Numbered from the stretch's first letter, positions 2,263 through 13,719 are shown. The stretch: 13,779 nucleotides of DNA from a virus (IMGVR_UViG_3300045988_103014:1-13779), one strand, 5' to 3'. Notes: generated by a model not told the origin, from the sequence alone. Numbers and translations are program-made.

Positions 2263-2291
2263 TTGATTTTTTATAAAAAATTTGTTATAAT
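2263..2291 (+). promoter_or_regulatory. Promoter P1: TTGATT-N17-TATAAT with an extended-10 TG, followed by the conserved ATATATGTAAGAT...GAAAGGGTTG leader
   Basis: -35 at 2263-2268, 17-nt spacer TTTTTTATAAAAAATTTGT, -10 at 2286-2291. It is the first of nine nearly identical + strand units. Confidence 0.75.
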
Positions 2292-2335
2292 ATATATGTA
2301 AGATGAAAGAAAGATAAATGAAAGGGTTGATGAAT

Positions 2336-2839
2336 ATGACACTTGAGCAGATTAAAGAGATAGCAAATGAATACGCAGCAAAGGTTGGTATGACTTTAGA
2401 TATTCCAGTAGTAATCAATGGAAGATTAACCAGAACATTAGGTTGTGTGCGCTCCGTTCGTAACACTCGTACAGGCTATGTTGAAGCAACTCAGATGGAC
2501 ATCTCTCGTCAAATGCTTGACACTTGCTCAGAAGATAGCATCAGAAGTGTCATTGGTCACGAAGTAGCCCACTATGTAGTAATCCAGGAGACACACGCAA
2601 GTCATGGACACGACGCAGTTTTCAAAGCTGCTTGCGCTCGTCTCGGTGTTGAGAACGACAAGCCTGCAACAGAGGTAGAAAGAGTTGTGGCTGTTCACTC
2701 TAAATATGAAGTATGGTGTGACACTTGTAATGAGAATGTTGGTAACTATTCTCGTATGTGTAAGACACTGCAGAACCTTGCGTTCTGCACTTGCAACAAG
2801 TGTAAAACAAGTAACCTTAGATTAGTTCAGAATTGGTAG
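2336..2839 (+). CDS. SprT-like zinc metalloprotease (HExxH) with a C-terminal Cys-rich zinc ribbon
   Basis: GRLTRTLGCV, then IRSVIGHEVAHYVV (the HEVAH motif), then HGHDAVFKAACARLG, all fit the SprT-like domain pattern. The C-terminus reads CDTCNEN...MCKTLQNLAFCTCNKCK. The track ORF starts at 2318, but the conserved GAAAGGGTTG leader (compare 3301-3318) argues for the ATG at 2336. Confidence 0.8.
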   Translation: MTLEQIKEIANEYAAKVGMTLDIPVVINGRLTRTLGCVRSVRNTRTGYVEATQMDISRQMLDTCSEDSIRSVIGHEVAHYVVIQETHASHGHDAVFKAACARLGVENDKPATEVERVVAVHSKYEVWCDTCNENVGNYSRMCKTLQNLAFCTCNKCKTSNLRLVQNW

Positions 2840-2849
2840 GAGGTAGAAA

Positions 2850-3044
2850 ATGGCAGATGAAATTATCAAACTGTATGAATATTTTTGCAACGACCCGGCT
2901 ATGCAAACACTGGCAATCGTAGTGTGTATTGGATTTGTCCTGTTTATTCTGCTATGGCTGTTTGTGTTCGGTTTCATTATGAAGCAGTTTTTCGGAATGA
3001 GAAAAGAGTTTAAGGATTTTGATAAGCATTTTAAGAACTGGTAG
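2850..3044 (+). CDS. Small predicted membrane protein of 64 aa with one hydrophobic helix
   Basis: TAGGAGGTAGAAA Shine-Dalgarno site, then the ATG. The stretch LAIVVCIGFVLFILLWLFVFGFI looks transmembrane and the tail is basic. Confidence 0.6.
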   Translation: MADEIIKLYEYFCNDPAMQTLAIVVCIGFVLFILLWLFVFGFIMKQFFGMRKEFKDFDKHFKNW

Positions 3045-3055
3045 GAGGTGACATC

Positions 3056-3214
3056 GTGAATCATACTCTGTTTCATATCTATATGATTGAATATAAGTAT
3101 CACGATAAAGCCAGTAAGAAAGATTATTTGAATGGGCGTGTCAATGAGATGCACGCCCAGAAGGCTCAAGAAGCCAAAGATAAGATGCGGGCTTTATTGC
3201 AGAGAGGGAAGTAA
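3056..3214 (+). CDS. Small hypothetical protein of 52 aa with a GTG start
   Basis: GGAGGTGACATC followed by the GTG at 3056. Hand translation: MNHTLFHIYMIEYKYHDKASKKDYLNGRVNEMHAQKAQEAKDKMRALLQRGK*. It ends inside the terminator stem at 3201-3236. Confidence 0.4.
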   Translation: MNHTLFHIYMIEYKYHDKASKKDYLNGRVNEMHAQKAQEAKDKMRALLQRGK

Positions 3215-3249
3215 CCATTTAGCTACTTCCCTCTCTAATTGATTTTTAT
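3201..3249 (+). terminator. Intrinsic terminator; its T-tract overlaps the -35 of promoter P2
   Basis: 13-bp stem: AGAGAGGGAAGTA (3201-3213) pairs with TACTTCCCTCTCT (3224-3236), loop of 10 nt, then AATTGATTTTTAT. Confidence 0.7.
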
Positions 3250-3267
3250 AAAAAAAAATGTTATTAT
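3239..3267 (+). promoter_or_regulatory. Promoter P2: TTGATT-N17-TATTAT, then the ATATATGTAATAAAGATAAAGAA leader
   Basis: -35 at 3239-3244, -10 at 3262-3267, TG at -15/-14. Confidence 0.75.
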
Positions 3268-11532: not shown

Positions 11533-12916
11533 TGCAATTAAAGAAGACTTTATGAAGGTAGTGGAATACTCACAAGGTATTCCACAGCCTCATGTTGAGA
11601 AACTATTTGACGACTGGATGGAAGCCAAGAGGGACTTCATTGAAGCCTGGGGTGGAAAGCTCATATATGAGTGGCCGGAAAAAGTTTCATTTGAACTTGG
11701 TGCAAAAGAAAAAGAACTTCGATTAAAGGACTTCTGCACTATGGTTCGTAATACTTATGGTAATTCTGATTTAGCTGACTTTATTGAAGAAAACAAAGAT
11801 GGTTTCTTCTCTAATCAAGTGTTAGAAGATTATGATTATTGCGGCACTAAAGTTCCAAAAGGAATGAAGTTGCTGCGAGCATTTAAGTTTTTTGAAAGTA
11901 ATCAAAGCGCACTTGAAAACCTCCAGAATGCGGCGAGTATGATTATCCAAGAGGATAAAATTGAAGGCACCCTATGTTTATCAGTTCACCCTCTTGATTT
12001 CTTGAGTACAAGTGAAAATAATCATAATTGGAGAAGTTGTCATGCGCTGGATGGAGAATATAGAGCAGGAAATCTTAGTCATATGATTGATAAGGCAACG
12101 ATTATTTGTTACCTTAAATCCAATAGAGAAGAGGTTCTTCCAAATTTTCCAACAGAAGTAAAGTGGAACTCAAAGAAATGGAGAGTGCTATTTTATTTTT
12201 CTGAACAATGGGATATGGTGTTCGCGGGTCGCCAGTATCCGTTCACCACAGAGACTGGACTTGATTTTGTTAAGAATAAGGTCTTTCCAAAAGCTCAGTT
12301 GGGAGAGTTTTCACATTGGACAGATAAGAAGTACAGAGATTTCAAAGAGGGCGATATCGCTACTCATTTCAGTTTTTCATATGTTCCAGTAGTAGATGGA
12401 ATTTTGAAGCTTAATGAGTTGATGATTAACGAGCCAGGTTCTTTACAATTTAATGATGTGTTATCTTCAAGTTGTTATGATGCGCTATATGCATATAGAC
12501 AGCGTGAAGGTTTTGGCGGAATTATATCATATTATCCTTCAATTCATCATACACATTTCAAGATTGGCGGACGATGCACTTGCATGAGATGCGGCAAAGC
12601 CCCTATTGAAATCACAGAGTCGTTTATGTGTAATGATTGTGAATTGGAATATGGTGACAGTGACGACGATATGTTTGCATATTGCCCTTGCTGCGGAAGC
12701 CGATATTTCTATGATGATGGAATATGGGTAGAAGGGGCAGAGGAATGTGTATGTCCTAATTGCGCTGATTCACAAACTCTCGTTTGTGATTGTTGTGGTG
12801 AAAGATATTATAAAGATGACTTAGTTTACAGTAGAAAACATGACGCATATTATTGCGGCTGTTGTGCAGATGATATGGATAATATTCGAGAGAATTTGAA
12901 GGAGGATTTTGACTAA
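11525..12916 (+). CDS. Large hypothetical protein (paralog B, 463 aa) with an LCLSVHPLD core and three tandem zinc-ribbon modules
   Basis: Paralog of the 7145..8833 product. Ribbon modules: CTCMRCG...MCNDC; YCPCCGSRYFYDDGIWVEGAEECVCPNC; VCDCCGERYYKDDLVYSRKHDAYYCGCCA. Translationally coupled at both ends. Confidence 0.8.
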   Translation: MYSAIKEDFMKVVEYSQGIPQPHVEKLFDDWMEAKRDFIEAWGGKLIYEWPEKVSFELGAKEKELRLKDFCTMVRNTYGNSDLADFIEENKDGFFSNQVLEDYDYCGTKVPKGMKLLRAFKFFESNQSALENLQNAASMIIQEDKIEGTLCLSVHPLDFLSTSENNHNWRSCHALDGEYRAGNLSHMIDKATIICYLKSNREEVLPNFPTEVKWNSKKWRVLFYFSEQWDMVFAGRQYPFTTETGLDFVKNKVFPKAQLGEFSHWTDKKYRDFKEGDIATHFSFSYVPVVDGILKLNELMINEPGSLQFNDVLSSSCYDALYAYRQREGFGGIISYYPSIHHTHFKIGGRCTCMRCGKAPIEITESFMCNDCELEYGDSDDDMFAYCPCCGSRYFYDDGIWVEGAEECVCPNCADSQTLVCDCCGERYYKDDLVYSRKHDAYYCGCCADDMDNIRENLKEDFD

Positions 12917-13233
12917 TGGCAAAAGGTGCGATTGCTAAACAGGTAGTAACTAATAAGATTGCTGAGGCGTTTGGTGAAGATTATATTGGTGAAGTTGATA
13001 AGAAGATTTATGTATGGGCGATGGAGAATGGAGAGAAAGTCCAGATTGCATTGGCTTTAACCTGTCCTAAGGTTATGGTTGCGAATGGTGCGGCTCCAGT
13101 TCCAGCAGCTCTTGAAAGTACAGATGGTGGTTTTAACTGGGATGATACGGTAAAACCTGATGCTGAACCAGCAGTTATTACAGCCGATGAAGAGGCTAAT
13201 ATTTCTAAATTGATGGCTGAACTTGGTTTATAA
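12916..13233 (+). CDS. Hypothetical protein of 105 aa
   Basis: TAATG overlap with the upstream gene. A terminator follows at 13243. Confidence 0.65.
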   Translation: MAKGAIAKQVVTNKIAEAFGEDYIGEVDKKIYVWAMENGEKVQIALALTCPKVMVANGAAPVPAALESTDGGFNWDDTVKPDAEPAVITADEEANISKLMAELGL

Positions 13234-13242
13234 GATTGATAT

Positions 13243-13280
13243 GGGGCAGATAAAGATAAACTTCTGCCCCTATTTATCAT
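13243..13280 (+). terminator. Intrinsic terminator
   Basis: GGGGCAGA (13243-13250), 12-nt loop, TCTGCCCC (13263-13270), then TATTTATCATATTTATT. Confidence 0.75.
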
Positions 13281-13323
13281 ATTTATTGTGGAAGCACAAA
13301 CAAAACTTTAAGGAGGTATACCA

Positions 13324-13677
13324 ATGGATTATACTTTGTTAGTCGACGACAAAACCCTTGGCATCACAAGCTTCACAGAGAGTTTAGATGGCAATGGTAA
13401 TATGACATTCAGTGTTACTGCAAACAATATTGATATGTCTAAATCTACATTTACTGGATTGAGAGATATTAGAGAGGCTATTGCAGACAATGAAATTGGT
13501 CTTAAGATTAAAGATAAGACTGGTCATATTGTATGGCAGAGTGATGAGTACGAGCTTTCTAACGCAAACTTTAATGCTAATGAGAGCGGTGTTTATTTCT
13601 CAGCTTATTTTTACATTCCAACAGTAGCAGCTGAAGAGAATGCAAGCGCTGGAACTGTAGCAGCTCCAAACGCATAA
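13324..13677 (+). CDS. Hypothetical protein of 117 aa
   Basis: AAGGAGGTATACCA, then ATG. No dedicated promoter is visible between the terminator and this gene. Confidence 0.6.
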   Translation: MDYTLLVDDKTLGITSFTESLDGNGNMTFSVTANNIDMSKSTFTGLRDIREAIADNEIGLKIKDKTGHIVWQSDEYELSNANFNANESGVYFSAYFYIPTVAAEENASAGTVAAPNA

Positions 13678-13690
13678 GAAAAATTCATTA

Positions 13691-13719
13691 TTGACAAAAT
13701 TAAAAAAATATGTTATAAT
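13691..13719 (+). promoter_or_regulatory. Promoter P9: TTGACA-N17-TATAAT (perfect consensus); it drives a gene that begins at the window edge
   Basis: -35 at 13691-13696, -10 at 13714-13719. A GGAGG at 13760-13764 sits 9 nt before the ATG at 13774, where the ORF runs off the window. Confidence 0.7.

Follow-up and report, generated by a model that had tools for sequence, protein, structure and literature searches.

The 13,779-nucleotide viral sequence IMGVR_UViG_3300045988_103014:1-13779 (hereafter 'the window', meaning that whole stretch) contains eleven copies of a short promoter-like unit, each placed between genes and each pointing into the gene that it precedes. We think it likely that these units are early promoters of the sigma-A type with a conserved start region, that some of them are fused to a terminator, and that they also act as crossover points for the small gene cassettes that they head. 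Two lines of evidence carry this reading: the units form a specific composite pattern that recurs throughout a family of related phages, and comparison of relatives finds cassettes gained, lost or replaced between units, in some cases leaving a single chimeric unit behind.

Eleven promoter-like units in the window

When at most one mismatch is allowed, the window has 11 matches to the composite pattern TTGA-N16-TGN-TAYWAT where 0.69 would be expected, and 200 dinucleotide-preserving shuffles never reached that count. The spacer is exactly 17 bp at all 11 sites, and a TG dinucleotide at -15/-14 extends the -10 hexamer at ten of them, the sole exception being P10446. Every unit is intergenic, is oriented in the same way as the gene that it precedes, and lies 16-80 nt from a start codon with a Shine-Dalgarno sequence. 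A repeat search of the window returned an 83-nt family with eight copies. The array extends past the window on both sides; at least 21 units were counted in a 22.7-kb stretch of the same genome, which measures about 194 kb.

Two classes can be told apart. Class A comprises the units at 2263, 3239, 4648, 6128, 7074 and 8871 on the plus strand and at 566 on the minus strand. Their -35 is TTGATT (TTGATA at 566), followed by a T5-6/A6-9 spacer, the TG, and a -10 that reads TATTAT (TATAAT at 2263, TACAAT at 566); all seven then run into ATATATGTAA(G/T)A(T/A)AAAGA. The same seven places account for the seven copies of TAYWATATATATGTAAKA (0.00 expected). The T-tract/A-tract spacer TTGATTTTTWWWAAAA occurs seven times (0.01 expected), as does TAYWAT-ATATATGTAAKA (0.00 expected). 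In class B (9605, 10446 and 13691), TATAAT leads into ATTTTTAGA, ATATTTAGA or ATTTATATA and then a short leader. Pm2210 stands outside both classes, with only the hexamers in common. The units and the hairpins near them are listed here by window position.

517-566, minus strand: Pm566, class A, with -35 TTGATA at 566-561, TG-extended -10 TACAAT at 543-538 and leader ATATATGTAAGATAGAA; its target is gene m1 (start codon 468-466).
2182-2210, minus strand: Pm2210, TTGATT-N17-TATAAT with TG and without the shared leader, divergent to P2263; its targets are m4 (ribbon-helix-helix), m3 and m2 (DUF6291).
2263-2312, plus strand: P2263, class A, without an upstream hairpin; heads g1 (SprT-like), g2 and g3 (2336-3214).
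3201-3288, plus strand: hairpin at 3201-3236 with a 13-bp stem, then P3239, class A, at 3239-3288; heads g4-g7 (3319-4624).
4629-4697, plus strand: hairpin at 4629-4648 (GGGAGCTTGCGGGCTCCC) passing straight into the TTGATTTTT of P4648, class A; heads g8, g9 and g10 (phosphatase), 4717-6075.
6094-6177, plus strand: hairpin at 6094-6130 overlapping the -35 of P6128, class A; heads g11-g13 (6185-7058).
7048-7123, plus strand: hairpin at 7048-7071 (9 bp), then P7074, class A; heads g14 (7145-8833).
8841-8920, plus strand: small GC hairpin at 8841-8855, detached from the T-run, then P8871, class A, at 8871-8920, with an 80-nt leader; heads g15 (8986-9438).
9470-9503, plus strand: stand-alone terminator-like hairpin behind g15, with a 13-bp stem containing 9 GC pairs, then TTTTAATTT.
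9605-9657, plus strand: P9605, class B, TTGAAA-N17-TATAAT with TG and short leader ATTTTTAGAAAGGAG; heads g16 (9658-10449).
10446-10506, plus strand: P10446, class B, without TG, overlapping the g16 stop codon; heads g17 (M28-like peptidase), g18 and g19 (10507-13233).
13243-13270, plus strand: stand-alone terminator-like hairpin behind g19; fragment folding at -19.7 kcal/mol, z -3.5.
13691-13741, plus strand: P13691, class B, matching TTGACA-N17-TATAAT at 12 of 12 positions, with TG; heads the gene starting at 13742.

An earlier, sequence-only reading of this DNA had listed ten of these sites, all of which are present; the eleventh, on the minus strand at 2210-2182 and back to back with P2263, was absent from it. 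That reading called the units near-identical, which describes the seven class A copies (85-94% identical to their best paralogue over 54 nt; P7074 and P6128 reach 94%) and does not fit class B or Pm2210. The extended -10 that it assigned to each unit is found in all but P10446, and the shared leader that it counted six times is indeed present in six units on the plus strand, the minus-strand copy at 566 making seven. The T/A-tract palindrome in the spacer is borne out by the seven occurrences of TTGATTTTTWWWAAAA. Consensus strength was overstated: most units match 9-10 of the 12 hexamer positions and are near-consensus, P13691 with 12 of 12 being a full match. Finally, the cassettes were described as one to three genes without known relatives (ORFans); they hold one to four genes, several of which are not ORFans. 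The window proteins include a SprT-like metalloprotease, a NinI-like phosphatase and an M28-like peptidase, and g4 and g14-g19 are present family-wide.

One gene of the window, g20 (13324-13677), lacks a unit of its own and sits behind the stand-alone terminator hairpin at 13243-13270, so that its expression would need read-through or an unrecognised promoter.

Cassette turnover between units

Do the units mark places where cassettes come and go? We compared 13 loci from a sister clade, whose genomes of about 195 kb are mutually 93-97% identical in nucleotide sequence and whose g17 is 56% identical to that of the window. Pairwise alignments yielded 46 distinct inserted or replaced segments with 92 boundaries. 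Within -60 to +80 of a unit start lie 37 of the 92, against 10.8% expected (binomial p about 3e-13, on counts that are not independent events).

In five indels, the longer genome carries units at both ends of the segment where the shorter one carries only one. The blocks of the alignment share 45-103 nt, and what they share is the unit; the cassettes concerned measure from 233 bp to 3.1 kb, unit start to unit start. Two of the five events, A2 and A3, were aligned base by base. In A3, the single unit of locus L132 follows the left copy of L122 through the spacer and the -10, and the right copy from the discriminator on. The three-way alignment for A2 (L124/L122) gives the same chimeric pattern. 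A single unit of this kind reads as the footprint of a crossover within the unit, and the same footprint is left by deletion or insertion mediated by promoter-early stem-loop (PeSL) cassettes in phages RB49 and phi1 (PMC2839356).

Could the unit-bounded indels reflect collapsed assemblies? The flanking units in these events are exactly identical over 13-27 nt, which is shorter than the final k-mers in most contig titles, and for two events both alleles recur in several independent assemblies. Both facts argue against assembly collapse, which we rejected.

Downstream of the g19 homologue, the sister clade carries 13-15 transfer RNA (tRNA) genes interspersed with the same promoter units (L122, L124, L132, L157 and L167; about 15-21 kb into the locus), and several unit-bounded indels fall within this array. 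No tRNA genes were found in the window or in L118, another relative.

In the window's own lineage, the closest distinct relative is L251, with protein identities of 78% for g4, 84% for g15 and 83% for g17. L251 retains the P4648 unit with its hairpin and the P7074 unit, and between them has just a 31-codon open reading frame, where the window has 2.3 kb containing g8, g9, g10, the P6128 unit with its hairpin, g11, g12 and g13. The landmark formed by hairpin GGGAGCTTGCGGGCTCCC and its unit is found in L118 and L252 as well, and similarity stops about 25 nt past the -10 (alignment A4). The sequence that follows the P4648 landmark is:

Window: g8-g10.
L251: a 31-codon open reading frame.
L118: homologues of g12 and g13.
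L252: a homologue of g13.

Accessory genes g1, g7, g9, g10 and g12 likewise occur on varying sides of the anchors g4, g14, g15 and g17 across relatives. These comparisons show crossovers within units in the sister clade and replacement of cassettes between conserved units in the window lineage, and we infer that recombination at the units recurs and does not amount to a few chance events only.

The units themselves differ in similarity between the two halves of the window. Over 54 nt, P2263, P3239, P6128 and P7074, in the variable left half, are 85-94% identical to a window paralogue versus 61-72% to their L118 orthologue. P8871, P9605 and P10446, in the conserved right half, are 91%, 70% and 81% identical to the L118 orthologue, which is their best or nearly best match. 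Exchange among units of the plastic half would produce this pattern; another contribution to the likeness of units within a genome could come from tuning, lineage by lineage, to a single polymerase.

A more economical explanation is that the units are strong early promoters only: boundaries would coincide with them since indels are tolerated only in the intergenic DNA that they fill, and they would look alike because the same polymerase reads them. We consider this unlikely. Several observations speak for it or weigh against our own reading. About 60% of the sister-clade boundaries lie outside -60 to +80, many of them at other gene borders; the boundaries are not independent events; and because units fill most of the tolerated intergenic space, selection alone inflates their enrichment there. 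Indels also occur within cassettes (g5 and g6 are absent from L251), and L118 has extra genes at cassette ends, both a poor fit to unit-to-unit exchange. The conserved g14-g19 half keeps its positional identity, as the figures for P8871, P9605 and P10446 show. Copies nearly identical to the window, from at least six independent samples, have no indels; they are therefore uninformative for shuffling, and nothing is seen happening on short timescales. The clearest chimeric units come from the sister clade and not from the window genome, and the likeness of units within a genome could stem from shared selection for one RNA polymerase optimum rather than from gene conversion. Against the promoter part of our reading, a loose sigma-70 scan finds 50 sites against 39 expected, which is no overall enrichment, so that only the specific composite pattern stands out; 7 of the 11 window units lack an abutting hairpin; and promoter strength, start sites, timing and termination are all deduced from sequence.

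What tolerance of indels does not explain is the structure of the events. Five indels have flanking units in one genome versus a single unit in the other, and both events aligned in full have a left half from one unit and a right half from the other, which implies a crossover inside the unit and not mere tolerance. In addition, downstream of one landmark unit, four lineages each have a cassette of their own. The proposal of the sequence-only reading that the units are points of cassette shuffling, to be sought as breakpoints between relatives, thus finds support in the 37 boundaries, the five indels and the P4648 landmark, and is limited by the majority of boundaries that lie elsewhere.

The start region and a phage sigma factor

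A position matrix built from the window units found 8-21 units per 21-kb locus in every relative, nearly all on the gene strand, although the relatives' proteins are just 30-75% identical to those of the window; shuffled sequence gave zero matches. To avoid circularity, a second matrix was restricted to the stretch from -35 to -10, and with it we collected 358 non-redundant units. Their information content is maximal exactly at the -35 and -10 hexamers, 17 bp apart. In most units the -35 is the variant TTGATT. As to an AT-rich stretch upstream of the -35, the family logo has no more than a weak A-rich signal of about 0.2 bits at -12 to -9 from the -35 start, and A-runs occur at this place in some window units.

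Downstream, the first ten positions past the -10 give A T A T A T (A/G) T A A; position 1 is A in 94% of the units, position 9 in 94% and position 10 in 91%. RR(T/A)AAARAAAR follows, and C does not exceed 2% to about position 21. Because these units were picked on the -35 to -10 region alone, the leader is a real family-wide feature and not merely the result of recent duplication in this genome. In the family, a start codon with a Shine-Dalgarno sequence most often lies 30-35 nt after the -10. Where positional orthologues can be compared directly, P8871 is 91% identical to its counterpart in L118 against about 70% for the flanking genes; in this case the unit is better conserved than coding DNA.

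What maintains the leader? It consists of an AT-rich discriminator, a predicted purine start about 7 nt past the -10, and a purine-rich, C-free stretch. The complement of the 3' tail of 16S ribosomal RNA is AGAAAGGAGG, which the purine-rich stretch overlaps. Promoter opening and escape, together with ribosome binding, would suffice to yield this content, and a separate post-initiation control would not be required. The sequence-only reading had proposed such a shared control acting through the leader; what speaks for it is sequence conservation, which constraints on the promoter, the start site and the Shine-Dalgarno sequence can explain.

The gene that starts at 13742, directly behind P13691, bears on this question. 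On complete contigs it encodes a 302-aa protein of the sigma-70 family (18491-19399 in L237), for which precomputed Pfam matches list regions 1.2, 2, 3 and 4; region 1.1 is absent. In L118, a separate scan of the homologue confirmed regions 1.2, 2, 3 and 4, and the protein is about 50% identical to RpoD-like sequences. We take its regions 2.4 and 4.2 to resemble those of bacterial primary sigma factors. Lying where the early array ends, a phage sigma factor may keep transcription from the same promoters going or take it over.

Might the units then form a dedicated regulon? TTGATT and the start region, ATATAT-R-TAA-RRWAAARAAAR, would be a phage-specific signal that switches at least 20 early cassettes together through a phage factor, either a sigma factor that reads it or a repressor, anti-terminator or RNase that acts after initiation. 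The phage sigma, without region 1.1, could be that factor, taking over the promoters while the host sigma-A is disabled; a protein that binds or cleaves the leader is another candidate. The leader would in that case be an element of control and not a side effect of what promoter and Shine-Dalgarno sequence demand. The downstream motif in the 358 units agrees with this idea, above all the A at positions 9 and 10, as do the sigma gene behind the last unit and the separation, in five window units, of the motif from the Shine-Dalgarno sequence actually used. We nevertheless find a dedicated regulon quite unlikely. The sigma gene itself lies behind a unit, so the host polymerase must read at least that unit first, and if regions 2.4 and 4.2 are primary-like, as we assume, one would expect no change in promoter specificity. 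No structure is predicted for the motif, and it matches no Rfam family. AT-rich discriminators and purine-rich starts are, moreover, usual in strong phage promoters. Were the regulon real, the same signal would be the homology that lets a captured gene join it by a single crossover.

It is hardly credible that the units are primarily mobile elements resembling miniature inverted-repeat transposable elements, or operators for a protein that binds the T-tract/A-tract palindrome: the spacer is a T5-6/A6-9 near-palindrome, and ribbon-helix-helix and helix-turn-helix genes lie nearby, but the units have no terminal inverted repeats or target-site duplications and an orientation strictly tied to the downstream gene (the grounds on which we rejected the transposon reading), their spacing to start codons is fixed, their information peaks at -35 and -10 hexamers always 17 bp apart, and the nearby DNA-binding genes own a different repeat array, at 600-1200.

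That array occupies a non-coding stretch of about 600 bp between Pm566 and m2. It contains about 17 copies, on both strands, of AATT[CT][CT][GT]AA (AATTCTTAA / AATTCCGAA), embedded in longer repeats, and one repeat (1155-1183) has an 86% inverted match at 2049-2077, in the leader of the Pm2210 operon. At the same position L118 (1700-2150) has an equally dense array of another motif, TAGCAA[CA]AAC / TTGCAAGTT, and the adjacent DUF6291 and helix-turn-helix-like protein is just 35% identical between the window and L118. The stretch resembles an array of iterons or operators that varies together with the protein binding it, and it may be a replication origin or an autoregulated control region.

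Hairpins upstream of the units

For each unit we folded the 67 nt that end in the T-run. Four fragments contain a hairpin that abuts it: those of P3239 (-23.7 kcal/mol, z -4.0), P6128 (-26.5 kcal/mol, z -6.9), P7074 (-17.1 kcal/mol, z -2.9) and P4648 (-14.5 kcal/mol, z only -1.4). The last has an 8-bp GC stem, also detected by a terminator scan, that runs into the first T of TTGATT. The four fused hairpins are followed, after 0-5 nt, by TTGATTTTT(T), a T-run broken by GA. At P8871 the hairpin ends 15 nt upstream of the -35 and an A-run follows; upstream folding at the remaining six sites is within background. Stem-loops of the intrinsic terminator type, with a GC stem and a T-run, thus comprise the four fused ones and the two stand-alone ones at 9470-9503 and 13243-13270. 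Scans of the whole window for tRNA genes and Rfam families returned none.

Five units had been credited with a GC hairpin abutting the T-run, and the terminator had been presented as a general part of the unit. Neither claim was borne out: P8871 drops out of the five, four of 11 units remain, and family-wide 23% of units have an upstream fold of -10 kcal/mol or lower against 14% of control segments, a modest enrichment. The terminator is an optional add-on and not a constitutive part of the unit.

The source phage and its relatives

By megablast, the whole window had no match among 50,697 phage records. Gut-metagenome contigs, one of them 193,905 bp long, encode the exact g4 and g10 proteins, and such contigs match the window at 99.6-100% identity over up to 13.8 kb with zero indels (L231-L240, at least six independent samples). 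The next relative is only about 72-77% identical in DNA. The window lineage is therefore very uniform and separated by a wide gap from its neighbours.

More distant homologues are numerous, with 2,955 proteins for g14 and 885 for g4; the contigs that carry them measure about 165-200 kb and come from human gut and rumen. Scans of viral and metagenome contigs found relatives with g17 and g4 and none with g14, for which no record of the exact product exists. Some relatives fall into bins of metagenome-assembled genomes (MAGs) of Lachnospiraceae, Clostridia, Erysipelotrichia and Bacilli. Judged by g17, the nearest isolates are Enterococcus phages (about 140 kb, 35% protein identity); in the nearest of them, Enterococcus phage H1, the annotated region yielded nothing informative. 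From the MAG binning and these isolates, the source is probably an uncultured family of large phages with Bacillota hosts. To our knowledge, T4-like phages carry no primary-type sigma factor. Judged indirectly, from its sigma factor, the MAG binning and the isolates nearest in g17, the carrier does not look T4-like.

Two of the family-wide proteins, g14 (562 aa, 7145-8833) and g18 (463 aa, 11525-12916), are Cys-rich paralogues that both match phrog_18912 and have in common an SxHPLD motif and a C-terminal run of CxxC pairs. They are conserved anchors of the early region throughout the family, and one homologue is named after the RPC12/RpoP zinc ribbon in one source.

Several observations concern the assemblies. 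An apparent difference in gene content between L119 and L120 proved to be contig truncation only, the two being 99.9% collinear. L121, a Logan contig from ERR10905743 of 1,802 bp, corresponds to window 7084-8886 at 98% identity, beginning within P7074 and finishing within P8871; the repeats break up short-read assemblies of this phage, cassette by cassette. The early region sits no more than about 5-30 kb from the end of the contig in many independent 175-200-kb assemblies (loci L122-L161), and one 402-kb contig has two diverged copies of it about 204 kb apart. These positions may mean that a fixed genome end or a terminal repeat is close by, or that assemblies repeatedly break in the repeats.

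Comparison with known systems

Among described systems, the PeSL cassettes of T4-like phages (Arbiol et al. 2010, PMC2839356; Comeau et al. 2014, PMC4122927) come closest. Both systems have a repeated intergenic early sigma-70-type promoter with N17 spacing (here at the sequence level), at the unit's 3' end the Shine-Dalgarno sequence and the start codon of the downstream gene, and sometimes a terminator stem-loop. In both, the units are dense among variable small genes (here at least 21 units in 22.7 kb, in a region that varies between relatives), indels and replacements adjoin them, and a two-unit cassette alternates with a single chimeric unit. The stem-loop of the present units, an optional part (4 of 11), lies upstream in every case and has its U-tract in common with the -35, whereas that of PeSLs occupies one of five positions. 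Our promoter is of the Gram-positive type, with a TRTG/TG extension, its start region is conserved to about +15, and its carrier has a primary-type sigma, Bacillota-binned relatives and Enterococcus phages as its nearest isolates, at 35%. Since a constitutive stem-loop is missing, we regard the units as a variant that works like PeSLs and not as a PeSL member.

SPO1's host-takeover module (Stewart et al. 1998, summarised in PMC6873191) offers a second parallel. It spans about 12-13 kb, with early genes, most of them small, organised as numerous short operons, each with a strong promoter of the host sigma-A type and a strong ribosome-binding site, in a phage that encodes its own sigma factor or factors; the papers cited here describe no recombination role for the promoters. 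The window shows no detectable protein homology to SPO1 genes 37-60, and its sigma factor is a near-complete primary type rather than the gp28/gp34 type.

Kayvirus (Twort-like) phages have dozens of early promoters per genome, TTGACW-N17-(TRTGN)-TATANT, with a start site about 6-7 nt past the -10 and terminators made of a GC stem-loop and poly-T (PMC7698491). All 11 window sites have the same N17 spacing, and ten of them the TG extension. They differ in a -35 that reads TTGATT and then a T-run, in a conserved T-tract/A-tract spacer and start region, in the fusion of some terminators to the next promoter, and in an identity of 85-94% over 54 nt among units, which goes beyond what a shared consensus gives. 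By analogy with SPO1 and Kayvirus, our units would be strong early promoters read by the host sigma-A holoenzyme.

The T5 early promoters PN25 and PH207, on which Gentz and Bujard worked in 1985, are said to be very strong promoters for the host polymerase with A/T-tract spacers, and T5 promoters reportedly show conservation into the first 20 or so transcribed bases, in a phage of a Gram-negative host. We know of no cassette-shuffling role for them.

A model for the units

We propose the following model. A unit consists of a TTGATT -35, a fixed 17-bp A/T spacer (a T-tract, then an A-tract), usually an extended -10 of the TRTG type, and TATWAT, followed by a start region with the ATATAT discriminator, a predicted purine start about 7 nt past the -10, and a C-free purine-rich stretch leading into the Shine-Dalgarno sequence. 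Host RNA polymerase with its primary sigma would read the units straight after infection and so express early cassettes of one to four genes. The phage's own primary-type sigma, one of the early genes, could read the same promoters later. At four junctions the hairpin of the preceding cassette would use the T-run of the next -35 as its U-tract and terminate the upstream transcripts; with that run shared, termination and re-initiation would be packed into about 90 bp.

The units contain exact stretches of 13-27 nt within 55-60 nt that are about 75-94% identical, so they would also serve as short recombination homologies. As comparison with relatives shows, crossovers from unit to unit delete, insert or replace whole cassettes, and a moved cassette would keep working expression signals. 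The same exchange probably keeps the units of the variable half alike within the genome.

Both underlying ideas are established: that large phages have arrays of strong early promoters, and that recombination occurs at intergenic signals that are conserved. In the papers cited here, recombination at repeated promoter/terminator cassettes is documented only in T4-like phages of Gram-negative hosts. The same footprint, two units in one genome and a single chimera in another, now appears in a large and abundant family of uncultured gut phages, with genomes of about 175-200 kb and Bacillota-binned relatives. The units mark the early 'host-takeover' region of these phages and explain why short-read assemblies break there, as in the Logan contig L121. 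The compact terminator-promoter-leader module is also a candidate strong expression part for gut Bacillota. For the phages themselves, our findings suggest a general way in which big lytic phages may trade small early genes while keeping them expressed.

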